From Saprospiraceae bacterium (GTDB lineage Bacteria > Bacteroidota > Bacteroidia > Chitinophagales > Saprospiraceae): a stretch of 64,000 nucleotides of DNA. The notes below the pieces were generated by a model. That model had not been told where the DNA came from. It searched no databases and saw only the letters and a list, made by a program, of their open reading frames with translations. The stretch covers positions 480,009 through 544,008 of the forward strand of contig CBDFIO010000001.1 in the NCBI GenBank assembly GCA_965248155.1. The letters are read 5' to 3'. Made by a program: the position numbers and the translations under genes. This document shows positions 5,631 through 17,209 of this stretch, piece after piece. Numbering within the stretch: the stretch's first letter is position 1; every line of letters starts with the position of its first letter.

Positions 5631-6086
5631 TTAAATCATTTCTAGCTTTGGATTGATGAAGGTTTTACAGAAAGGTTTTGCGGGATCTTTTATGTAATAA
5701 TTTTGAAATTTGGAATCTGAATGTTTAAAAGCTTTAAAAGGATAAACTTCTGCAACTATCATTTCCTTGAAATCTTTTTGAAGGTGTTTGATGATAAGAT
5801 TTGACTGATGAGTTTGATCTTGATTAAATGTATATATCGCAGATCGATATTTTTCTCTCATCGAATGTTTAGAAGTGGCTGAGTGTGTATGCAGGTGAAC
5901 TTCTATAAGCGTTTGGAGGGAAATTTCATTTTCTTCAAAATGTACGAGCACAGCCTCAGAGAATGAATTTTGTTCATCTGAAGATGCGATATATCCTTGC
6001 TCTACTTTTATTACACCTTTTAGAAACTGGAATACGGCTTCTGTACACCAATGACATCCACCACCTAATCCAATCTTACTAATCAT
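5631..6086 (-). CDS. msrA: Peptide-methionine (S)-S-oxide reductase MsrA-like
   Basis: N-terminal GLGGGCHWCTEAVF (compare the MsrA GCFWG active site), followed by ...EAVLVHFEENEISLQTLIEVH...KYRSAIY. Confidence 0.7.
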   Translation of the reverse strand: MISKIGLGGGCHWCTEAVFQFLKGVIKVEQGYIASSDEQNSFSEAVLVHFEENEISLQTLIEVHLHTHSATSKHSMREKYRSAIYTFNQDQTHQSNLIIKHLQKDFKEMIVAEVYPFKAFKHSDSKFQNYYIKDPAKPFCKTFINPKLEMI

Positions 6087-6186
6087 CTAATAGCTGTTAG
6101 TTTACAAGTACATTTAATTCAGAGTTTGAGAAAATCAGATAATGGGTACCAAAAGGGGATACCCATCGTCTGTGAATATTTTTAAA

Positions 6187-6543
6187 TTAAGCGTGATAAT
6201 ATCTCTCTTTAAGGATTTTACCATCTTTCCATTCGGATGCAACAATTTGTTCCGAGACCATTGTTGTTCCGTTTTTTAATTTCAAAGTCATTACGGCATC
6301 GTAAAAACTATGATTTCCATGAACTGCATAATTGCCTACATTATACCCAATGAATTCTTCCAATTCGTTGTTAATAAAATCTGCTTCAAACTTCACACAA
6401 AAATCTTTTCCTTTTTTAGGATCTCCATTCGCTTCTCTTAATTCTACATCATCATGCAAATATGTTTCCATCGCTTGAATAAATTGGCCTTCAGCCAGCA
6501 GGTCGTGAATATGTAATAAATTCTTTTCTATTTGATTTTGCAT
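6187..6543 (-). CDS. SnoaL/NTF2-like small protein
   Basis: 118 aa. Size and alpha+beta pattern are consistent with the NTF2-like fold. No catalytic motif recognised. Confidence 0.4.
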   Translation of the reverse strand: MQNQIEKNLLHIHDLLAEGQFIQAMETYLHDDVELREANGDPKKGKDFCVKFEADFINNELEEFIGYNVGNYAVHGNHSFYDAVMTLKLKNGTTMVSEQIVASEWKDGKILKERYYHA

Positions 6544-6563
6544 CTTAACTTGTTTTTAAATTA

Positions 6564-6893
6564 TTAATGAGTAGTTTGACTTGAATACTGATGAATTTTG
6601 TCGTGCAATGCAGACTCGGTTTGAAGACCAACTAATGATTCCACAACTTCGCCATCTTGGATAAAGAATAGTGCAGGAATACTTCTCACTCCAAATGATT
6701 CAGCCAACTCTTTATTTGTTTCCACGTTTACTTTTGCTATTGCAAAATCTGATTTGTGGAGTTCCGCAAGTTTTTCAACTGTAGGAAGTAATGTTCGGCA
6801 TGGACCACATCAATCAGCATAGAAGTCTAATAGTACAGGTTTGCCTTCACTAATAATTTCTTGAAAGTCTTTGTTATTTTTTATTTCTCTCAT
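6564..6893 (-). pseudogene. trxA: Thioredoxin with in-frame TGA at the Trp codon of the WCGPC active site
   Basis: Not in the ORF track. The minus-strand translation is MREIKNNKDFQEIISEGKPVLLDFYAD*CGPCRTLLPTVEKLAELHKSDFAIAKVNVETNKELAESFGVRSIPALFFIQDGEVV... The TGA is at 6812-6810, and the frame is otherwise intact for 109 codons. Confidence 0.8.
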
Positions 6894-6991
6894 GTTATAT
6901 ATTTTATGGTAATTAAAAATTATAACACAAATATGAATCCTATTTCAAGCTGAAGAATAGGCTGTTATTCCTTAACTGTTGGCATATTTAC

Positions 6992-7819
6992 CTATTGACC
7001 GGATTCTCTGAAATCAAGCGGAGAAATTCCCATTTGTTTCTTGAAAAAACGGCTAAATGACTGGATGTCTAAGAATCCAAGATCGTAACCGATTTCGGAT
7101 ATAGATTTGTCAGAATACTTCAAAAGTCGCTTCGCTTCGAGTATTAATCGATCCTTTATGAATTGTAAAGGAGATTTGATGCCTAATTTGTTAAAAAGAT
7201 TAGAAAGGGTTTTGGGTGCTTTATTTAATAACTGAGCATAATCTGCAACACTATGCTTCTCTCTGAAATATTTTTCAACAAAATAATTGAACTCTCTGAC
7301 AGTATCTGTATGTATTAAATCGGAGGAGGTAAAACTGCTTTGAGCTTTATAGATTCTAGTGCAAAGTATAAGTATTCTTTTTAACATCATTTGCAGCATT
7401 TCTAATTGTAAACTATCATTTGACTTCATTTCCATATCAAGTACCTTCCAGACGGATTCTAAAATTTCATTATCACTATCCGGAATATCAATGATTGGTA
7501 AAGCGGGTGAGCCATAATATAAAATACCTTTGCAACCAACTTCACTATCATGATCGAGAATGCAATAAAATGGTTTATTGAACCTTAAAAGTTTTAATTC
7601 ACTAATCTTTTCAATTTCTATTTTATGAAATTCAGTATAACAGATGATTTGATTCGTGTTAAAAACATAGGGGGCAGAATCAATAGTAAGTCGATTAGAA
7701 TCAGATGTGAACCAAAGAAGTGACAGTTCATTGCTATCTGAAGATTTCAGAATATCACAATTTTCTTGAGTAATAAGCTCCACTTCAAATGATTCCCCAT
7801 TTCTTCCTCTGTATTTCAT
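6992..7819 (-). CDS. AraC-family transcriptional regulator
   Basis: The C-terminal double HTH (ADYAQLLNKAPKTLSNLFNK...ISEIGYDLGFLDIQSFSRFFKKQMGISPLDFR) is typical of AraC/XylS. Confidence 0.85.
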   Translation of the reverse strand: MKYRGRNGESFEVELITQENCDILKSSDSNELSLLWFTSDSNRLTIDSAPYVFNTNQIICYTEFHKIEIEKISELKLLRFNKPFYCILDHDSEVGCKGILYYGSPALPIIDIPDSDNEILESVWKVLDMEMKSNDSLQLEMLQMMLKRILILCTRIYKAQSSFTSSDLIHTDTVREFNYFVEKYFREKHSVADYAQLLNKAPKTLSNLFNKLGIKSPLQFIKDRLILEAKRLLKYSDKSISEIGYDLGFLDIQSFSRFFKKQMGISPLDFRESGQ

Positions 7820-7848
7820 TATGAAATTTCAAGTATTTAAAATTGTCC

Positions 7849-8265
7849 TTAATTAAAGGGTAATAAATCGGGTTCCAAATAATTTAACCTTGCTTGCTTT
7901 GATATAAAAATATCTGAACTATAATGACTTTGGATCAGCTCTTTAAAGTTTGATTTTAACCTTGGGAATTCTGATATAAAATCCTTGAAACTGCCTGATT
8001 CAGATTTTTGTATAAATTGGTTTACAATTTTAATGGCAGCTAAGGTTAGGGTAGTGTGGTACTTGTCTTCGGCGCCTACATGTTTCACAAAAGACTTAAT
8101 TTGAGATTGGATATCTTCTTCAGCTTTCTGAACACCATTTTTCGTGATTTTAATCCAGGCAAGACGTAAGTGTGCTTCGTGGCTAAATAGCTCAGGCTTG
8201 AGTTGGCATGAAAAGAATTGCGCTTCAAATTCGTTGTCAGACAGATCCCAATGAGAGTTGCTCAT
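7849..8265 (-). CDS. Hypothetical protein (138 aa)
   Basis: Long ORF, co-directional with and 39 bp downstream of the Rieske-ThDP gene. No motif recognised. Confidence 0.5.
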   Translation of the reverse strand: MSNSHWDLSDNEFEAQFFSCQLKPELFSHEAHLRLAWIKITKNGVQKAEEDIQSQIKSFVKHVGAEDKYHTTLTLAAIKIVNQFIQKSESGSFKDFISEFPRLKSNFKELIQSHYSSDIFISKQARLNYLEPDLLPFN

Positions 8266-8303
8266 ACTTGATTTTTAAAAATTGAAATACAAATATAAGC
8301 GCA

Positions 8304-10253
8304 TCAAATCAATTTAACATCCGCCTTAACTTCGAGAAGTCCAGGACCATCATGGTCGAATAGTTTGTTCATTGCATCTTCTAAGTCTTCTGTTTTTTGA
8401 ACTAAGATTCCTAATGCACCGCAGCTCTCAGCATAGGATGCAAAATTCGGATTGACAAGACTTGTAGCCCACACATCAAATTCTCCAGCTCTTTGTTCCT
8501 TGGATATTTTGCCCAGTTCATTATTGTTAAGCAAAATAATCTTAATTGGCATTTTGTATTTCACGGCAGTAGTCAATTCTGCGAGGTATTGACAAAATCC
8601 ACCATCACCTGCAACTGCAATTACAGGTTGATCACTTCCAACTGCAGCCCAGGCTCCAAGTGCTGCTGGAAGGGCAAACCCTATCGAGCCTAGATATCCG
8701 GACATCAGAAACCGATGATTATCACTTTCAAAATATCTACCAAAAGAATAAGCATTGTTTCCTACATCTACACACATGACTGCATTCTTTGGTGCTAATC
8801 GAGTCAATGTATCAAAAACAGCAATTGAGCTGATACCTTCACCTCTGTCCTCTAATAAGCGTTTTTGTTTTTCTGCACGCCAAATAGACCAGCGCTTTTC
8901 AATTTCCTCTCTTTGATTTACTTTATTGTCAGAGTTGGATAATTGCTGATTGAGCATTTCCACGGTAACAGAAATTTCTCCCCAAACGGGAATTTGTACT
9001 TTATGGAATTTACTCAAAGCCATTGGGTCAAAATCGATTTGTATTGTAGGAATTTTAGGTGTGATTCCCGTATGTTTTGAAAAAGAAGCTCCAATTACTA
9101 AGAGTAGATCAGCCTCATTCATAAACCAGGATGCAATCGGTGTTCCGCTCCTTCCTAAAACACCACAACCTAATGGATGACTATCTGAGATTTGTCCTTT
9201 TGCTTTAAAAGTAGTCATGACAGGACAATTCATTTTTTCTGCGAGGGCAATGACATTTTCCATGTGGAATCGAGCACCATGACCTACTATAATTGCCGGT
9301 CTTTGTGCTTTGTTTAACTGTTCTAAAGCTTCATTAAATGTTTCCTGAGGTGGTGCAATCGTCATCGGTGTTATCCTTCCTTTAGGAGTCTTTGATTTTG
9401 CTTTTGTAGATGCGGGAAGGGTTTGGATTTCATCCGGAAAAGTAAGATGAGAAACATCTCTTTTTATAATGGTATGCTTAATCGCTAGAAGCATAAGCTC
9501 TGCATGTCGACTGTTTTGCTGAACTCTATGATTGAATTCAGCAACAGTATCAAATGCTCTCACCAGATCTAATTCCTGAAAATTACCTGTACCTACGACC
9601 TGTGTTGCAACTTGTCCTGTCAATGCCAGGATTGGTGCACGGTCTACTTTTGCATCCCACAAGCCAGTATACATGTTGGTAGCTCCTGGTCCGGCAATTG
9701 CAAAACATGCAGCAGGTCTGCCCGTTAATTTACCATAGGCAGAAGCTGCGAAAGATGCTGCACCTTCATGTCTTATACCAATAAACTTGAGATTTCCTTT
9801 TTCTTCTTGTCGCTTTAAAGCATCAGCTAATCCCAAATTAGAATGACCCACCATGCCAAAAACTGTATCTATGCCCCAGTTGACCATGGTTTCTGCCATG
9901 ATATCTGTTATCGTAAATTCAGGATCTGCTTCTTTTTCTAATCCTACATAGATTCCATCCGCTTCAATCTTAATCGGAAAAGTATCTACACCATCATCAT
10001 ATCCAGGAATTTTCCCAGTACAAGGATTAAAATCCCAACCATGCCAGGGACACCTTAACATTCCATTTTCAATAGATCCTTCTCCAAGTGGACCACCCTG
10101 ATGTGGACATTTGTTATCCAAAGCACTAATCGTTCCCTCATATTTTGTCAGGCAAATCCCTTTATGACCAGCTGTTACAGTCATTACCCGCCCTTCCAAT
10201 AATTCATTTTCTTTATCTAGTACTTTATGCCAAACGATTTGATTTTCGTCCAT
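8304..10253 (-). CDS. Rieske [2Fe-2S] domain fused to a PoxB/acetolactate-synthase-type thiamine-diphosphate enzyme
   Basis: N-terminal CPHQGGPLGEGSIENGMLRCPWHGW (CxH..CxxH). Then the ThDP-enzyme N-domain (IRHEGAASFAASAYGKLTGRPAACFAIAGPGATNMYTGLWDAKVDRAPILALTGQV) and the C-terminal ThDP motif GDGGF...LNNNELG. Confidence 0.8.
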   Translation of the reverse strand: MDENQIVWHKVLDKENELLEGRVMTVTAGHKGICLTKYEGTISALDNKCPHQGGPLGEGSIENGMLRCPWHGWDFNPCTGKIPGYDDGVDTFPIKIEADGIYVGLEKEADPEFTITDIMAETMVNWGIDTVFGMVGHSNLGLADALKRQEEKGNLKFIGIRHEGAASFAASAYGKLTGRPAACFAIAGPGATNMYTGLWDAKVDRAPILALTGQVATQVVGTGNFQELDLVRAFDTVAEFNHRVQQNSRHAELMLLAIKHTIIKRDVSHLTFPDEIQTLPASTKAKSKTPKGRITPMTIAPPQETFNEALEQLNKAQRPAIIVGHGARFHMENVIALAEKMNCPVMTTFKAKGQISDSHPLGCGVLGRSGTPIASWFMNEADLLLVIGASFSKHTGITPKIPTIQIDFDPMALSKFHKVQIPVWGEISVTVEMLNQQLSNSDNKVNQREEIEKRWSIWRAEKQKRLLEDRGEGISSIAVFDTLTRLAPKNAVMCVDVGNNAYSFGRYFESDNHRFLMSGYLGSIGFALPAALGAWAAVGSDQPVIAVAGDGGFCQYLAELTTAVKYKMPIKIILLNNNELGKISKEQRAGEFDVWATSLVNPNFASYAESCGALGILVQKTEDLEDAMNKLFDHDGPGLLEVKADVKLI

Positions 10254-10254
10254 T

Positions 10255-11499
10255 TTAATAGATTTTTTTCACCAATTTAGAAATCGTTAGTCCTTGAATC
10301 AGTATGGAAAAAATAACCGTTCCATAGGTTAATAAGAGAATCGTGTTTTTTGAAAACTCCGGGGCCAATGAAAATGCCAAAGCCAGTGAGATACCGCCTT
10401 TTAATCCTCCCCATGTAAGAACATAGGTGGTTTTTAACCAGGAACTTTCTTCGTGTTTTAATAGGGAGCACGGAAGCCATACTGAAATAAACCTTGCAAT
10501 TAAAACCAAAATAATGGATAGCACCGCAAGTATTAAATAACTGCTATTTTCAATGACTATGAGATGAAATGCCAGACCTAAAAACACAAAGAGCACTCCA
10601 TTCAAACTATCATCAAGAATATGCCAAAAGCCAACAAGATTTTTTCTGGTTTCAGGGTTGAAATCAGGCGCTTTAATTTTACTACCAATATATAAACCGG
10701 CTACAACCATCGCTAATGGACCGGAAGTAAGTAATAACATAGCAATACTATAACCTCCAAAAACAACAGCAAGACTTAGTACAGTAGGTAAATAGATTTG
10801 ATCTTCAGATGACTTCATGAGTCTATAACCTCCAATACCCAATACGAGGCCTAATAGGAGACCCAGGAAAACTTCTTCGGCAAAAAGAAGCACGATTTCC
10901 AGGTATATATTGCTGCTTTGTTCCATCATTTCTCCCACACCACTAACAAGAAGAATAGCTGTAAAAACAATTACTCCAATTCCGTCATTAAATAAGGATT
11001 CACCTTCAATTTTCAACTTCAATGATTCACTGATATTCGTGTTTTTTAGTATTCCCAGTACGGCTATTGGATCAGTGGGTGAAATTAGAGCACCAAATAA
11101 CAGACAGTGCAGATATGGAATAGAACAGTTGATCATTTTTGCCAAATAAAAGAGTCCAGTTCCTACGAGGAACGTTGATATTAATACACCTACTGTTGCG
11201 AATAGAAGCACAGTTACTTTTTCCTTTTTCAATTTATTAATGTCAACATGTAATGCTCCGGCAAATAATAGGAAACCAAGCAATACATCCAGCATGATAT
11301 GTGTGAAGTCAGTATTCAGGATGAGATCACAAAAGAAACTATAAACTGGTGGAACCACCGGTCTTAAAGCGAGCACTATAATAGCCAAAATCAATGCCAT
11401 GATCATCTGTCCTATGGTCATTGGTAGTTTGAGCCATTTATAATTAATGAAGCTTAACAGCGCCGCGAGCGCAAACATTATGCTAAAGGATTCATACAT
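10255..11499 (-). CDS. CPA1-family Na+/H+ (cation:proton) antiporter
   Basis: About 12 TM segments with the family blocks LFGALISPTDPIAV and ESLFNDGIGVIVF. Confidence 0.8.
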   Translation of the reverse strand: MYESFSIMFALAALLSFINYKWLKLPMTIGQMIMALILAIIVLALRPVVPPVYSFFCDLILNTDFTHIMLDVLLGFLLFAGALHVDINKLKKEKVTVLLFATVGVLISTFLVGTGLFYLAKMINCSIPYLHCLLFGALISPTDPIAVLGILKNTNISESLKLKIEGESLFNDGIGVIVFTAILLVSGVGEMMEQSSNIYLEIVLLFAEEVFLGLLLGLVLGIGGYRLMKSSEDQIYLPTVLSLAVVFGGYSIAMLLLTSGPLAMVVAGLYIGSKIKAPDFNPETRKNLVGFWHILDDSLNGVLFVFLGLAFHLIVIENSSYLILAVLSIILVLIARFISVWLPCSLLKHEESSWLKTTYVLTWGGLKGGISLALAFSLAPEFSKNTILLLTYGTVIFSILIQGLTISKLVKKIY

Positions 11500-11500
11500 G

Positions 11501-12295
11501 TTATTCGTATTTCATTTTAATGTCATTAATATCTAAGTACAAAATATCCCAACTAGAAAACTTATTAGTGGTTCCAGTTACAGAAACTTTTTCAGCAACA
11601 TATTTTAATGTCTCTTTGTTTAATGGACTACCTTGCTTATCCAGCATAAGATAATATTTATAATCTTGATTATTGTCTTCAGGTTCATATCTAAAAACTG
11701 GAGGGATGCCACCACTTATGCATCTAATTGCACAGCTTTTATGAATCTTACCTTCTCCGGGTTTCATTACGCCGAAATAACATTTTGGATCCAAAATCTC
11801 GCCCTTGACAGAAATAAATTCTTTCGGAGTTAAATTGATTTCTTTTTTGGATGTTGCCTCAAGTTGTTGAATAAGAGAATCGTCTTTTTGAGTTAACTCC
11901 ATTAATGTCTTACCATCTCCTTTGATTAATGTTCCCGCCAATACAATTTTTTTTCTATGAAGAGATCCGGTTCTTTCCTGAATTTTATTCATTGTTGCAT
12001 TAGCACCAACTTTGCCAAATCCAACCAATAAAATCTCATTCGAAATGCCTTCAGGTAGTTGCCCCTCATCAGCTATTAACATGGGATAAGGTATATTATA
12101 ATAGAGTCCTGAAATCTGACTTGTTTTTCCTAATTGAAATGAATGAGTGTTAAAACCCTTTTGAAAAAAAACCAGTAAAAAAACAAAAACTGGAATCAAA
12201 GCAAAAAATAAAATTATTCGCTTTCTTAAAAAACGTCGATGCTCATCTCCCATTTTTTCCTGCCAACCAATATAAAATCTATCATCCTTATTCAT
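11501..12295 (-). CDS. Membrane-anchored hypothetical protein with a Cys-rich C-terminal motif
   Basis: One N-terminal TM helix. Motif DPKCYFGVMKPGEGKIHKSCAIRCISGGIPP. Overlaps the upstream gene by 8 bp and abuts the antiporter gene. Confidence 0.5.
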   Translation of the reverse strand: MNKDDRFYIGWQEKMGDEHRRFLRKRIILFFALIPVFVFLLVFFQKGFNTHSFQLGKTSQISGLYYNIPYPMLIADEGQLPEGISNEILLVGFGKVGANATMNKIQERTGSLHRKKIVLAGTLIKGDGKTLMELTQKDDSLIQQLEATSKKEINLTPKEFISVKGEILDPKCYFGVMKPGEGKIHKSCAIRCISGGIPPVFRYEPEDNNQDYKYYLMLDKQGSPLNKETLKYVAEKVSVTGTTNKFSSWDILYLDINDIKMKYE

Positions 12296-13334
12296 GAGAC
12301 TCTATTTTGGCAGGATCAACAAAGGTTCCTTCAAATTTGGGAGTAGGGTTTAACCAGACAGTATTCTCCCAAATACGTGTTTCATATGTTTTTACTTTTT
12401 CGGTAAAAGGCGGTGGAGATTGACCATTATGAGGCAGATATTGGTAGCCATGCCATGGACAGGTAATGCATCCATCTATAATTTTTCCTTCTCCTAAAGG
12501 TCCCATTTGATGTTTACAAACATTGTGCACTGCAGATACTTTATTGTTATACTTGAAAATGGCAATATTTTCACCTTTAATAAAAACTGTTTTAGCGCAA
12601 GATTCTGGAATTTCATGAATGGAAGCTATTTCATAGAATCCTTCTTTTTCCAATTTTGTTTTATTCGATTTTAAATTTTTTCTTTCATTCCATCCACTGT
12701 AGAAATGTAAAGTAGATACAACTAAAAAACCTGTAATCAACAGCGTCCAGTAAACAGGATGACTTTCATATTGCAATGCTCCTGTTGCGACATGAATGAT
12801 GATCAGGCCATAAGCAAAATAGACCATCATATGTAAAGCTTTCCAGATTTCAGGCGACAGGTTTTTAAGCCAAAAATCATGGCTCGTAACTGCCATTAAG
12901 TATAATATTATCAATGCAAAAAATCCTAATATTTGGAATGGAAATTCACTGATTGAAGTATAATTTAAATTAGAAGTAAATATACTTACAACAGGATTTG
13001 TATCGCCGAGGGTATGGAACTCAATCATACAGAATAGTCCATGAGTCAAAGCGAGTAAAAACATAGAGACGCCCATATGGCGCCTATTATAAAGTAAGGG
13101 TAAAAAAAGCTTATTTAGCCTGGAAACTGGTCCGATTATTAAAATCAAATGAAGTAATAAGAATGAGCAAAGACCTGTAGCTCTGATAATTAATGTTTCA
13201 ATTGTAATTTCAGGATGAAAAATGAATTGAAAAGCGATATAAGAAACGAAAAACAATAATATTCCTAACCATAGAATTTTGTCATATTCCTTCTTTTGCT
13301 TGTTCCATAGAACCGGGACATAATTATTGCTCAT
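12288..13334 (-). CDS. Ferric-reductase/MsrQ-like six-TM (di-haem b type) domain fused to a C-terminal Rieske [2Fe-2S] domain
   Basis: TM helices with spaced His residues (LLLHLIL, RRHMGV, LALTHG, ALHMMVYFAYGLIIIHV), then CKHQMGPLGEGKIIDGCITCPWHGY. Confidence 0.7.
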   Translation of the reverse strand: MSNNYVPVLWNKQKKEYDKILWLGILLFFVSYIAFQFIFHPEITIETLIIRATGLCSFLLLHLILIIGPVSRLNKLFLPLLYNRRHMGVSMFLLALTHGLFCMIEFHTLGDTNPVVSIFTSNLNYTSISEFPFQILGFFALIILYLMAVTSHDFWLKNLSPEIWKALHMMVYFAYGLIIIHVATGALQYESHPVYWTLLITGFLVVSTLHFYSGWNERKNLKSNKTKLEKEGFYEIASIHEIPESCAKTVFIKGENIAIFKYNNKVSAVHNVCKHQMGPLGEGKIIDGCITCPWHGYQYLPHNGQSPPPFTEKVKTYETRIWENTVWLNPTPKFEGTFVDPAKIESHE

Positions 13335-13416
13335 TGTATGGCAAGTATTATAATTAGAGAAACAAGCAGACTAATTACTACCCAACTATAAAAATGTCTG
13401 TGTCGTAATGAAGGCT

Positions 13417-13629
13417 TCATGATTTCGATACTCTAATCCATTTAATTAAAAAAAGAAGCCACAACAAGCTTAATCCCGGAAATATTAAGACCCTGAAAAG
13501 GAAGCTTGCATTTTTAGTGTTTGGATCTACTTGATGAATCCCTTTCCATAAAAATATTATTGAAAACAAAACTCCAAGCGCTAAGTAAAATCCAATACAG
13601 TTGATTAAAATGTTTATAATATTTTCCAT
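13417..13629 (-). CDS. Small two-TM membrane protein (70 aa)
   Basis: Two hydrophobic helices. It starts 8 bp downstream of the glutamate-synthase-like gene. Confidence 0.5.
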   Translation of the reverse strand: MENIINILINCIGFYLALGVLFSIIFLWKGIHQVDPNTKNASFLFRVLIFPGLSLLWLLFLIKWIRVSKS

Positions 13630-13637
13630 GATTTGAA

Positions 13638-14612
13638 TTATGATGAACTTACACCGGCAAATGGAATTCCGGTGAGTTTATGGATATCATAATGAAATGT
13701 ACTTAAATCATTAAAGTTAAACTTAGCTATATCATCATGACCACAAGACCTTGCAATCACTTTGATCAGATCATTCGATGCTCTAAAAAAGTTGTTAAGT
13801 TGATTCGCAGATGACTCGATAATCAATCGTTTTCTCAATCCTTCTTTCTGTGTAGCTATACCCACGGGACAATTATTAGAACCACAGGCACGCATTCCTA
13901 AACATCCAATAGCTTGCAGTGCAGAATTAGAGACGGCAATTGCATCTGCACCCAACATCATGGCTTTTGCAAAATCTTCGGGTACACGTAATCCTCCTGT
14001 GATAATGAGTGTGACATCATCTGCTTGTATACTATCAAGATGTTTTCTTGCTCTTGCTAGAGCAGGTATAGTTGGAACATTAATATTGTCTCTAAGAATC
14101 GTGGGTGCGGAACCTGTTCCACCACCTCGACCATCAAGAATGATATAATCTACACCAACTTCAAGTGCAAAATCAATATCTGCTTCAATATGACTAGCAG
14201 CAATTTTATAACCCACGGGAATGCCTCCTGTTCGTTCTCTCACTTCTTGGGCTACTTCCTTGAAATCTTTTGCGGTGAATAAATCTGGAAACGCGGCCGG
14301 AGATATGGCAGCACGACCTTCTTCCAATCCACGCACTCCTGCAATCTCCTTGGATACTTTATGAGCAGGAAGGTGACCTCCAGTACCTGTTTTTGCACCT
14401 TGACCTCCCTTAAAATGGAAAGCCTGTGATTTTGCTACTTTGTCGAGTGTATAGCCAAATTTACCTGAGGCTAATTCATAAAAGTATCTTGAATTATTTG
14501 CTTGTTCCTCTGGAAGCATTCCTCCTTCTCCACTACAAATTCCAGTTCCTGCCATTTCAACACCCATGGCCAAAGCAATTTTAGCTTCCCGGGATAAAGC
14601 GCCAAAACTCAT
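13638..14612 (-). CDS. FMN-dependent glutamate-synthase-domain-2-like oxidoreductase, C-terminal (TIM-barrel) part
   Basis: Begins exactly at the family motif MSFGALS. Also contains GEGG, FHFKGGQGAKTGTGGHLP, and DGRGGGTGSAP. Confidence 0.8.
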   Translation of the reverse strand: MSFGALSREAKIALAMGVEMAGTGICSGEGGMLPEEQANNSRYFYELASGKFGYTLDKVAKSQAFHFKGGQGAKTGTGGHLPAHKVSKEIAGVRGLEEGRAAISPAAFPDLFTAKDFKEVAQEVRERTGGIPVGYKIAASHIEADIDFALEVGVDYIILDGRGGGTGSAPTILRDNINVPTIPALARARKHLDSIQADDVTLIITGGLRVPEDFAKAMMLGADAIAVSNSALQAIGCLGMRACGSNNCPVGIATQKEGLRKRLIIESSANQLNNFFRASNDLIKVIARSCGHDDIAKFNFNDLSTFHYDIHKLTGIPFAGVSSS

Positions 14613-15250
14613 ATGGAAACAAAGATGGGCATATCAAGTAAAAGTGGTTTTTTGGCTTTTGGCCCTATGGTAACTTTAGTTTTAACCTCCTCATGATCTA
14701 ACAAGGGACGTGATGCCAGTTGTGCTGGAAGAAATTGAATGTTTTCCCATTTAGGAAGTGTATTCCGATCAACACCCATTGATGCTGATGGCCCATGATG
14801 TCCATATTTTTTTAATCCATTTTGAGTCAGTTCTTTGATGTATCGAGTATAAGGTTCAGTACTTTCTGGATGGGTGTCTGAATATTGTCCCAGGTACTGC
14901 TCCCGATCGAACGGTTGTGGATAATCAAGTAAATATTGATTTATTTCATTTTCATCTACCAATACAAAATCCTCGTGAATCTCCGAGTAGAATTTATGCA
15001 GGACTTCTTTATTATTGTATTCGCTTACTCCAGAGTCGATACGATAGTCCCATCCATGAAGTCCACATATTATATTATTACCATCAACATATCCATCCGC
15101 CATTAAAGCACCACGATGCAGGCAGCGTCCATATAGAACAGATACTTTTTCGTCATAGCGGAGGACCACAAGATCTAGTCCGTTAAGTTGTGCAGCTTTT
15201 GGTTTTCTGTCTTCAAGTGAGGAAAAGGAAGTTAGTTTTATCTTATGCAT
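14609..15250 (-). CDS. Rieske [2Fe-2S] domain plus the N-terminal segment of the same glutamate-synthase-like fold
   Basis: CLHRGALMADGYVDGNNIICGLHGW. The C-terminal half (...LPKWENIQFLPAQLASRPLL...LLLDMPIFVS) is the segment that normally precedes MSFGALS in a single polypeptide. There is an ATGA overlap with the next ORF. Confidence 0.75.
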   Translation of the reverse strand: MHKIKLTSFSSLEDRKPKAAQLNGLDLVVLRYDEKVSVLYGRCLHRGALMADGYVDGNNIICGLHGWDYRIDSGVSEYNNKEVLHKFYSEIHEDFVLVDENEINQYLLDYPQPFDREQYLGQYSDTHPESTEPYTRYIKELTQNGLKKYGHHGPSASMGVDRNTLPKWENIQFLPAQLASRPLLDHEEVKTKVTIGPKAKKPLLLDMPIFVSI

Positions 15251-15446
15251 TTGAATTCAGTTGATTTCGTTTAAAATTTGAATATCAATGTTACTTTATA
15301 GAAGCTATTCAATTCTATCTTTGATATGAACCTGATAAAATTGCAAATTGTTCAAATCCGCATCATTTCTTTTTTTATTGTTTACTGATTCAATAAATTC
15401 ATTTACATCCTTATCGGTTTCCTCATTGACTAATTTCTTCATAATA

Positions 15447-17209
15447 TCAATTCTCAATAATGAACCCTAACTCTTGAGAAATTTTTATATCATCAAGTGC
15501 TTTCTTGTTTTCATTCAAGGCTTTATGAATGATAGATCGGAAATAATAAAAAGATCCTTCGTCATTACTTAGATCTATAGCCCGATTGATATATTGGAGA
15601 GCTTCAGTGAAGTTGCCTAATTTTTGAAGTAGAATTGACATATTGTAATAAGAAAGAACATCTTCTGAATTCAATTCAATGAGTTTTGAAAAATCTACCA
15701 TTGCCAAACTATCTTGATTCAACCGCATTAATAATACAGCACGATTTCCGATAGCACGTTGATAGTCTGGGTATATTTCGATAGCTCTACTAAAATCCTC
15801 TAGTGCAGTTTGGTTGTTAGAAGAAGCTAAATTTGCAAGTCCTCTGTTATTGTAAGATTCATGTAAATCAGGATTTATTCTTATGCATTGATTACAATCC
15901 AATAGAGCACTATCAAACTTGCCGCTTTCATAATAACTGGAAGCTCTATTGCAATACGCAAGACGATGATCAGGGTATTTTTTTATAACATCGCTCCAGA
16001 GCGTAATATTGTTTTTCCACACTTTTGTTCTTTGATGACTAATGAAAACGAGTGAAACGATATAGAGGATAGCAACTGTTTTTATTATTTGTCGAGTAAA
16101 ACCTGTCTTTGTTTGTTTAGCGAAATAATTGACCCAAATAAATGAAATGATATAAAAGATGCCGATGTATGACAAGTAAGTAAATCGATCAGAAATAATA
16201 GCCTTTCCTGCTGGGATTATTTGTAAGACTGGAGCTATGCTAATAAGGAAAAACAGAAATCCGAATGCATAGTCTCTGTTTCTTTTCATTGATTTTATTG
16301 TAAAAAAGAATAGTGCTATACCAGGTAATATTGCTGCATATATATACCAAGGCATATCTCCGCCTGAAGTATAAGGATAAGGATGAAAAGCACAAAGATT
16401 GTACGGGAGGATACATTTAATGAGGTATACCATCATACCGTAAGCTCCTACGAAAATGCTTTTGTACCATTGAAGCTCTGATAATTCAAACATGGCTTGT
16501 CCGGCTTGCTGAGTTTTGATCAGAATAATTCCAAATACTATACTTAAAAGAAAGAAAGGAATTTTTTCGAAAAGGTTTTGCCTCCAATTTTTGTGTCGTA
16601 ATAAGTAGTCTATTGCTATTAGAATTACGGGCAATGTGACGGCCATTCCTTTTGCGAATAAGCTCAAAATGAAACAGGTCAAAGTAGCCAAATAGTACCG
16701 TAGTTTGTTTGAAGGTGACTTAAGATAATTCATGTAAAATACGAGAGCAAGCAGGTAGTAAAAACTATATAGAACATCCTTCCTTTCAGAAATCCATGCC
16801 ACAGATTCAACATGCATTGGATGGATGCCGAACAATAGAGCCGTAATAAATGCGATTGTTATATTATCCGATATTTTCCTGATAAATACATATACGAGAA
16901 AGGCATTTAGTAAATGCAGTACCAGATTATGAATATGATATAATGCAGCATCAAATCCGCCAAGACTATAATCAATAGCAAGTGAGATGAGTGTCATAGG
17001 ATGATATAATCCCTGCACTTGAAAAGTACCAAAGATATTGCAGAGCCCTGCCATGACAGGTCTTGGATCAGGAGATTGTCAAGAACATAAGCTGGATCAT
17101 CCCAATTAACCCAACCGTTGGAAACGACAGGAAACATTGCAGCACATGATCCCAATAGAACAATTAGGATAGGATAAGAACTTTGTTTAGACCATTTGGA
17201 ATTTTTCAA
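15447..17209 (-). pseudogene. Multi-TM DUF1736/TMTC-like protein with C-terminal TPR repeats, frameshifted near the 5' end
   Basis: ORFs 16994-17209 and 15447-17054 overlap. N-terminal ...NGWVNWDDPAYVLDN... and then YHPMTLISLAIDY, HPMHVESVAWISERKD are consecutive blocks of one family. One extra G after TGG (CC at 17051-17052 on the plus strand) restores DLSWAGLCNIFGTF. Confidence 0.7.

Follow-up and report, generated by a model that had tools for sequence, protein, structure and literature searches.

To which acceptor would a pyruvate-oxidase-like enzyme deliver its electrons if an iron–sulfur carrier were joined to its own N terminus? The question is raised by a gene encoding a Rieske domain fused to a thiamine diphosphate (ThDP) enzyme, which lies at 8304..10253 on the minus strand of a 64,000-nucleotide stretch of DNA from a Saprospiraceae bacterium (GenBank assembly GCA_965248155.1, contig CBDFIO010000001.1, positions 480,009 to 544,008 of the forward strand). 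We call this whole stretch the window and give positions in its coordinates unless stated otherwise. Known ThDP enzymes of the pyruvate oxidase (POX) family have two outlets for their electrons: O2 in pyruvate oxidase itself, and membrane quinone in PoxB, PQO and CidC. Our analysis favours, with moderate confidence, a different outlet for the fusion protein: a soluble ThDP oxidase of the POX/PoxB lineage that would pass the electrons of a 2-oxoacid through its own Rieske domain to partner proteins. This reading is built on the anatomy of the protein, the conservation of its ligands, its phylogenetic position, the swapping of its carrier among relatives and the conservation of its gene neighbourhood, from which we infer a bound flavin adenine dinucleotide (FAD), the substrate, the acceptors and which way the electrons flow.

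The gene is complete: a single open reading frame (ORF) of 649 residues with an ATG start, open throughout 8304..10253 (stop included) and with zero internal stops in the ORF list. As an earlier note had read from the letters of the window, a Rieske domain precedes a complete three-domain ThDP enzyme, the four Pfam domains lying in one intact frame. The N-terminal Rieske-type ferredoxin domain (residues 1–105, 9939..10253, minus strand as for all features of the fusion; PF00355 at residues 11–82, E = 3.9 × 10−16) carries two ligand boxes, C49-P-H51 (10101..10109) and C68-P-W-H71 (10041..10052), the ligands of both being fixed across the orthologue alignment. A short, weakly conserved linker of about eight residues (approximately 106–113, 9915..9938; Pfam domains stop at 82/103 and resume at 114) leads into the ThDP pyrimidine-binding (N) domain with the catalytic Glu163 (residues 114–231, 9561..9914; PF02776 TPP_enzyme_N, E = 4.8 × 10−33), the central, FAD-type domain (residues 307–434, 8952..9335; PF00205 TPP_enzyme_M, E = 1.5 × 10−32) and the ThDP diphosphate-binding (C) domain (residues 496–642, 8328..8768; PF02775 TPP_enzyme_C, E = 1.7 × 10−33). 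Within the last of these lie the ThDP/Mg motif GDGGF...NNN (residues 549–578, G549-D-G-G-F...N576-N-N, 8520..8609), whose D550 and N577 align with PoxB D433 and N460, and Lys582 (8508..8510), which alignments place in the column of PoxB Phe465 and of a Met in yeast AHAS. The three domains, the catalytic Glu and the GDG-X(24-27)-NN spacing are those of the POX/AHAS-type ThDP superfamily, many members of which were matched by Foldseek with a probability of 1.00. An AlphaFold2 model of the whole chain (mean predicted local distance difference test (pLDDT) 93.9, predicted template modelling (TM) score 0.91) renders the Rieske region as a beta-rich domain (pLDDT approximately 90); this model was run on a 150-sequence alignment of Rieske- and rubredoxin-fused proteins (alignment A1), a single-sequence run (pLDDT 34) being unusable.

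The fusion is real and not an assembly or frameshift join, as full-length relatives attest. A homologue search returned thousands of matches, and all 120 of those listed cover 99–100% of the query at 71–82% identity and contain both the Rieske and the TPP Pfam domains. A pattern scan (one genome per species) placed relatives in 531 species, with near-full-length matches at 70–80% identity at 80 of the 80 best loci. In all 82 aligned orthologues C49, H51, C68, H71, Glu163, D550, N577 and Lys582 are invariant, so the cluster ligands are present on alignment as CPH and CPWH boxes, and the median identity to the window protein is similar for the Rieske part (71%) and the ThDP part (74%). One orthologue in a same-class genome (G191:C2:445174-447120, 71% identity) has a single in-frame TGA. 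The architecture is not rare: it is common in sequence databases, but functionally unassigned, and the names given there are broad and vary from entry to entry ('pyruvate oxidase', 'thiamine pyrophosphate-binding protein', 'Rieske 2Fe-2S domain-containing protein'). Full-text literature searches found no paper on the Rieske–ThDP fusion.

The Rieske domain itself fits a role as an electron carrier. Its ligand set is CxH...CxxH with the boxes 16 residues apart (class range 15–17), the column of the bc1-type disulfide Cys after box I (+5) is Gly in 82 of 82 orthologues, and the middle residue of box II is Trp in the same 82, versus Cys in the bc1-type CxCH. Among solved structures, the closest matches are soluble Rieske ferredoxins that serve oxygenases (2QPZ, the naphthalene dioxygenase ferredoxin, E = 5 × 10−13, then T4moC, CarAc and BphF). 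Because the disulfide cysteines are missing and the nearest solved relatives are oxygenase ferredoxins, the domain is, on sequence grounds, of the ferredoxin type (the low-potential class) and not of the high-potential bc1/b6f type, although it is tethered to a 540-residue enzyme and is not the small free-standing protein that defines a Rieske ferredoxin.

Placement of the ThDP core was consistent across four kinds of comparison. Among NCBIfam hidden Markov models (HMMs), the pyruvate oxidase model PRK08611 (NF006377) ranked first with 409.8 bits (cut-off 742), followed by PRK06457 (330.6 bits), biosynthetic acetolactate synthase TIGR00118 (311.2 bits, cut-off 538.35) and PoxB PRK09124 (NF006591; 304.2 bits, cut-off 792); SpxB TIGR02720 scored 285.7 bits (cut-off 637.85), and sulfoacetaldehyde acetyltransferase (Xsc) PRK07525 (NF005713) came twentieth with 243.4 bits (cut-off 620). 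None of the curated NCBIfam family cut-offs was reached by the fusion protein; the tree-nearest representatives that were scanned all rank POX-type models first, not AHAS. The best sequence match in the PDB is E. coli PoxB (3EYA/3EY9, E = 1 × 10−66), and the top Foldseek matches are L. plantarum POX (1POX, 4FEE), E. coli PoxB (TM score 0.90–0.91 on the target, root-mean-square deviation 2.8 Å), C. glutamicum PQO and AHAS; the Foldseek alignments span approximately 540 columns, and no solved structure matched by sequence or by fold covers the Rieske part. In a maximum-likelihood tree of 63 ThDP cores, anchored by E. coli PoxB and NCBIfam-labelled representatives, the clade of the fusion and its iron-carrier-bearing relatives (the iron-carrier clade) is sister (Shimodaira–Hasegawa-like approximate likelihood ratio test (SH-aLRT) 99) to a clade that contains the true PRK08611 oxidases P0159 and P0170 (approximately 955 bits) along with E. 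coli PoxB. Because HMM rank, PDB matches, tree and Foldseek all place it there, the ThDP core as read from its sequence belongs beside the pyruvate oxidase/PoxB group and is PoxB-like without being a PoxB, in line with the earlier note's judgement, made by eye, that it resembles PoxB more than Xsc.

Likenesses and differences to characterized enzymes sharpen this placement. With PoxB, PQO and S. aureus CidC (NF006591, NF005114) the fusion shares the three-domain ThDP fold (to 3EYA), the catalytic Glu (Glu163, invariant, in the column of PoxB E50), the GDG...NN motif, equivalents of Val380 and Glu469 and conserved central-domain columns, and in our proposal it would also share oxidative decarboxylation with electrons leaving through a flavin; it differs in its N-terminal Rieske domain and in its predicted acceptor, a protein and not quinone. 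A set of 88 columns is conserved in at least 80% of 18 POX/PoxB-clade representatives; the iron-carrier clade keeps 57 of them, among which are 12 in the central domain (PoxB G209, G211, P229, K237, G249, G252, G255, D267, G273, F276, Q290 and D292). The alignment with PoxB ends at PoxB residue 526 of 572, with six further residues in the fusion, or about 12 residues past the column of PoxB P520; the PoxB-type C-terminal lipid-binding/activation peptide (the last ~40–50 residues of PoxB) is thus missing, and the whole iron-carrier clade is similarly short. L. plantarum POX and SpxB (NF006377, TIGR02720) are the top HMM family and the top Foldseek matches and belong to the same superclade, but the fusion falls below their cut-offs, does not conserve Phe479, lacks their C-terminal extension of ~50 residues, has a Rieske domain added and presumably does not use O2 as acceptor. 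Taken as a whole, the sequence evidence makes it fairly probable that the fusion is a POX/PQO-type oxidoreductase with a built-in iron carrier, outside the curated families and the solved structures.

The strongest available argument that the N terminus carries catalytic electrons, and that the chemistry is oxidative, comes from the swapping of carriers among relatives. In an exhaustive search of 1.84 billion representative sequences, the Rieske-fused family proved compact, comprising few full-length clusters at 50% identity (P0121, 66% identical to the window protein; P0122, 56%; P0124, 54%), and the next-nearest proteins carry, by Pfam, an N-terminal rubredoxin (P0128, 47%; P0130, 43%; P0137, 39%; P0144, 37%; P0146, 36%); two further relatives, P0134 and P0136, have no N-terminal fusion. 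The Rieske clade is monophyletic in the tree (SH-aLRT 89), sister to the rubredoxin-fused pair P0128/P0130 (SH-aLRT 100) and nested among the other rubredoxin-fused and two unfused sequences (SH-aLRT 93). The rubredoxin-fused enzymes are thus the nearest relatives and have the same short C terminus and a one-electron iron carrier at the N terminus, with Lys (P0128, P0130), Met (P0137, P0144) or Asn (P0146) at the Phe465 column; they differ in the carrier, a 45-residue rubredoxin versus a 105-residue Rieske domain, and in the absence of a Rieske-tagged glutamate-synthase-like neighbour (described below) from the two gene contexts examined. In the 873-residue P0124, a CDGSH domain, a Fer4_19 domain, a second CDGSH domain, the Rieske domain and the ThDP enzyme follow one another in one chain (Pfam). 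Because rubredoxin occupies the same N-terminal position in sister lineages and CDGSH and Fer4_19 are stacked there in P0124, the N terminus is, as far as domain architecture tells, a slot for interchangeable one-electron iron carriers. The earlier note's proposal of a built-in acceptor, which would serve an oxidative reaction, gains comparative support from the rubredoxin swap and from the variant with two CDGSH domains and Fer4_19.

Both carrier types are widespread. A search seeded with P0128 found abundant rubredoxin-fused forms in Opitutales, Desulfobacteraceae and other lineages, and Rieske-fused forms beyond the Bacteroidota in Acidobacteria bacterium Mor1, Polyangiales and alphaproteobacterial metagenome-assembled genomes (MAGs). 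Several side observations accompany these relatives: P0124 looks like a four-cluster wire on a single polypeptide; a free-standing 45-residue rubredoxin gene (L086 6751-6888) lies approximately 110 bases upstream of a rubredoxin-fused POX-like ThDP gene (L086 7001-8827); and proteins of ~1000–1190 residues in which the ThDP core is matched in two to five stretches (P0141, P0151, P0162, P0165, P0184, P0188 and similar) have the look of double ThDP enzymes, in tandem or fused, with kinship to the POX group.

Candidate partners for the Rieske domain lie beside the gene. On the minus strand, the tightly packed order in the window is a Rieske-fused glutamate-synthase-like gene (Rieske-GltS-like), a 70-residue ORF, a ferric-reductase-type gene with a Rieske domain (FRD-Rieske), a 264-residue protein matching no known family, Na_H_Exchanger, the fusion, a 138-residue ORF and an AraC-type regulator. 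FRD-Rieske (12288..13334, 348 residues; PF01794 + PF00355) combines a ferric-reductase-type haem-b membrane domain with a C-terminal Rieske domain, which is the closest relative in the window of the fusion's own Rieske domain (36% over 89 residues, 67.8 bits). The Rieske-GltS-like gene (13638..15250; PF00355 + PF01645), whose Rieske domain is 27% identical to that of the fusion over 48 residues, encodes a Rieske-fused flavin mononucleotide (FMN) enzyme; an intact orthologue can be aligned to the Azospirillum GltS FMN domain and keeps the three cysteines of the 3Fe–4S region (GCLGMRACGSNNCPVG). Compared with three relatives, the gene is missing a single base in this genome (GTTTC-CATATGAG against GTTTCAGATATGAG, window 14560-14670), which splits it into ORFs of 213 residues (14609-15250) and 324 residues (13638-14612) that would otherwise form a protein of ~537 residues, contiguous at 535–547 residues in relatives. 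The frameshift may mark a genuine pseudogene or stem from a sequencing error. Whole-genome searches found no canonical GltS large subunit (~1500 residues) in this genome or in Acidobacteria bacterium Mor1; a second GltS-like gene (a 542-residue open frame) is present on contig 2 of this genome. Both genomes have two GltS-like genes, with open frames of ~540–575 residues, one Rieske-fused and one with N-terminal membrane helices.

This gene pool recurs, in shuffled order, across the 80 related loci. Shares were counted within 7 kb of the fusion at the 41 loci flanked on each side by 7 kb or more and, these loci being mutually related, are descriptive only: Rieske-GltS-like is present at 66%, Na_H_Exchanger at 61% (always on the same strand), an unannotated 258-residue protein at 54%, and FRD-Rieske with its 264-residue partner at 51%. 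The pairing of the Rieske–ThDP fusion with Rieske-GltS-like extends to other phyla, being found in Acidobacteria bacterium Mor1 (27-base gap), an alphaproteobacterial MAG, Polyangiales (where Na_H_Exchanger lies between the two Rieske enzyme genes) and another large contig, as well as at Pyrinomonadaceae and Balneolaceae loci. Among 301 genomes sampled evenly across the phylum, seven (this one included) have a full-length fusion orthologue, 17 have FRD-Rieske and approximately 50 have a full-length Rieske-GltS-like gene; searches of the five same-family genomes and of 20 others from the same order gave no fusion orthologue. A distribution this patchy, taken with the 80% identity to Saprospiraceae proteins, may reflect horizontal spread of the fusion gene. 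In the same sample, GltS-like adjoins FRD-Rieske where the fusion is missing in nine genomes, the fusion adjoins FRD-Rieske where GltS-like is missing in three, and the fusion adjoins GltS-like where FRD-Rieske is missing in two, plus other phyla. An obligate three-gene system was accordingly rejected, each Rieske-tagged gene also occurring without the others; the genes form a loose network of modules and do not make up a single obligate complex.

From these observations we propose the following route. The fusion would be a soluble cytoplasmic ThDP enzyme, probably also a flavoenzyme, that oxidatively decarboxylates a 2-oxoacid, with pyruvate as the default guess; the central-domain flavin would split the electron pair and feed single electrons into the N-terminal low-potential Rieske [2Fe–2S] domain, which would hand them to other proteins in place of direct quinone reduction at the membrane. 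PoxB, in contrast, docks on the membrane via its C-terminal lipid-binding peptide and reduces quinone directly. The most likely acceptors would be the Rieske-tagged proteins that recur in the same neighbourhoods: the Rieske-fused GltS-like enzyme as a reductive sink (Rieske to [3Fe–4S] to FMN), and the Rieske-fused di-haem ferric-reductase-type protein as a reversible link to the membrane pool or the periplasm. Characterized GltS relatives consume electrons through 3Fe–4S and FMN, and di-haem proteins of the FRD type join donors in the cytoplasm, or the quinol pool, to the far side of the membrane; within this Rieske-tagged trio, a natural source of electrons is found in the ThDP enzyme alone. 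The assignment of donor (ThDP enzyme), sink (GltS-like) and membrane link (FRD-Rieske) would fit all three pairwise gene combinations. Precedent for transfer from a flavin through a Rieske ferredoxin to a Rieske centre exists in three-component Rieske oxygenase chains (naphthalene and biphenyl dioxygenases, T4MO), whose ferredoxins the N-terminal domain resembles (2QPZ, 1VM9, 1FQT, 1VCK) and whose logic the proposed route shares, with the differences that the ferredoxin is here joined to its reductase, that the reductant would be a 2-oxoacid via ThDP and not NAD(P)H, and that a GltS-like FMN enzyme and a haem-b membrane protein take the place of oxygenases as proposed partners. PFOR resembles the proposed enzyme in function, as a ThDP enzyme whose oxidative decarboxylation delivers single electrons to iron–sulfur centres, but belongs to an unrelated fold and family, depends on CoA, and has [4Fe–4S] clusters and no flavin; no homology to it was detected in any search run. 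A more ambitious version, tentative and in our view rather doubtful, is that the Rieske–ThDP and Rieske-GltS-like enzymes form a self-contained couple, in which 2-oxoacid oxidation would drive a GltS-type reduction (for example, reductive amination of 2-oxoglutarate) by Rieske-to-Rieske transfer without NAD(P)H or free ferredoxin, with FRD-Rieske as a two-way tap between the couple and the quinone pool or periplasm.

Several findings weigh against the proposed route to partner proteins. First, Lys582, invariant in the 82 orthologues and in the 150-sequence alignment A1, stands at the column of PoxB Phe465 (LpPOX Phe479), a residue that has been proposed as electron relay from ThDP to FAD (a PDB entry, 2EZ4, is titled 'variant F479W', which marks Phe479 as a studied residue). 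Second, among the clade-wide changes relative to PoxB (D27 to H137, E51 to G, H80 to N193, N83 to T196 and F465 to K582), the third and fourth give the N domain an AHAS-like motif, GPGATN..TG, where PoxB has GPGNLHLING. Given this motif and the Lys, the internal electron route may differ from that of POX. Third, FAD binding is read from conserved columns only, and these may be structural, not cofactor-specific. Fourth, the three Rieske-tagged genes are not obligately linked, as all pairwise combinations exist, and 2 of the 41 loci have none of the recurrent neighbours. Finally, the Rieske-GltS-like partner is frameshifted in this genome, for which reason the fusion enzyme would here need FRD-Rieske or unlinked partners. 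As a speculation, the invariant Lys582 in the substrate/flavin region may indicate an acidic substrate, such as 2-oxoglutarate.

Some of these features would suit a non-redox enzyme, that is, a ThDP carboligase or lyase (AHAS- or glyoxylate carboligase-like) with a vestigial flavin, in which the Rieske or rubredoxin domain serves as a redox or iron sensor or a structural regulator. AHAS keeps an FAD without redox role, the N-domain motif is AHAS-like, the residue at the Phe465 column is non-aromatic, as is the Met of AHAS, and AHAS models score only moderately below POX models (311 versus 410 bits). We nevertheless consider such a carboligase unlikely: the tree groups the clade with POX/PoxB and not with AHAS, the replacement of one carrier by another and the stacking of CDGSH and Fer4_19 in P0124 are the behaviour of an electron wire and not of a sensor, and the neighbours are themselves Rieske-tagged redox enzymes.

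The same residue changes also bear on the internal route. In a flavin-independent, PFOR-like scheme, the ThDP enamine would be oxidized in two one-electron radical steps directly by the Rieske cluster, the central domain being structural only; the Phe465-to-Lys exchange and the four other changes, near the active site, could be read in this way, and PFOR provides a precedent for transfer from ThDP to an Fe–S cluster. The central-domain columns common to the FAD-containing POX/PoxB group are kept, however, the best structural matches are FAD enzymes, and PFOR has a different fold with its cluster inside the catalytic domain, so that we regard this scheme as very improbable. Electrons might alternatively flow in reverse, with the Rieske domain taking them from a partner and feeding the flavin/ThDP site, either to drive a reduction or to hold the flavin in its reduced state. 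The direction of flow is unreadable from sequence, and the nine sampled genomes with Rieske-GltS-like and FRD-Rieske together and no fusion imply other donors or acceptors in the network. Hydroxyethyl-ThDP, though, is a strong reductant whose oxidation is the natural direction, we know of no POX-family enzyme that catalyses a net reductive reaction, and in several phyla the sole conserved neighbour is the GltS-like enzyme, whose characterized relatives consume electrons; reverse flow thus has, in our estimation, a slim chance of being correct. As an alternative for the partner alone, the GltS-like enzyme may run as a dehydrogenase, with both enzymes feeding FRD-Rieske, which fits the membrane-linked loci but would leave the two-gene loci of other phyla without an acceptor. 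That the fusion itself arose from an assembly or frameshift error, or is a pseudogene in decay, as the frameshift in the adjacent Rieske-GltS-like gene might hint, is refuted by its open frame, the intact set of invariant family residues and the presence of the fusion at 80 of 80 loci, and its probability is practically nil. The outward route, from a 2-oxoacid through the flavin and the attached Rieske domain, is therefore the one we retain.

The remaining genes of the window cluster add context. The Na+/H+-exchanger-family membrane protein (10255..11499, minus strand as for the rest of the cluster, 414 residues; PF00999, E = 1 × 10−58) ends one base upstream of the start of the fusion gene; the 264-residue single-pass protein (11501..12295), a constant companion of FRD-Rieske in related loci, overlaps the FRD-Rieske gene by eight bases; and the small 70-residue membrane ORF (13417..13629) recurs in 19 related loci, always on the same strand. 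The accessory proteins unk258, unk264 and unk133, the 70-residue ORF and the 138-residue downstream ORF gave no match in Pfam, NCBIfam or the PDB. In the related loci (L001-L082), the 258-residue protein is often directly upstream of the fusion gene (L065 8488-9264, L081 12123-12524 and L079 11949-12164 are examples of recurrent orphan genes), and the recurrent family-less neighbours (of 258, 133, 70 and 264 residues) travel with YHS, DUF2721, DUF427, YjeF_N and FMN_red genes. A promoter and terminator scan of 6500-15600 gave no excess over shuffled sequence (promoters, 32 versus 34 expected; terminators, 9 versus 5). Genes for methionine sulfoxide reductase A (MsrA) and a SnoaL-like protein lie downstream of the cluster (window 5631-6543 and 6564-6893 region), and in Fluviicola an OsmC gene follows the fusion gene; these MsrA, SnoaL-like and OsmC neighbours hint at an oxidative-stress setting.

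Of the architectures in this network, the literature searches found only FRD plus Rieske to have been catalogued (PMC3591440); the present analysis contributes the sister architectures with rubredoxin and CDGSH, a phylogenetic tree, the residues at which the fusion departs from PoxB and the co-occurrence of the genes across genomes. Together, these results suggest that a large and strongly conserved lineage uses an attached iron carrier, seemingly a Rieske domain in Bacteroidota, Acidobacteria, Myxococcota and some Proteobacteria and rubredoxin elsewhere. If true, this would give the POX family a third electron exit and tie central 2-oxoacid metabolism in a new way to chains of protein electron carriers, with the Rieske-GltS-like partner and its kept 3Fe–4S/FMN site offering a concrete hypothesis that is testable by reconstitution. 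Should the self-contained couple also prove correct, N-terminal iron carriers (Rieske, rubredoxin and CDGSH) would represent a general plug-and-socket wiring of flavoenzymes. A function for the family would improve thousands of inconsistent annotations, and would also explain part of a recurrent unannotated gene island in marine Bacteroidota.

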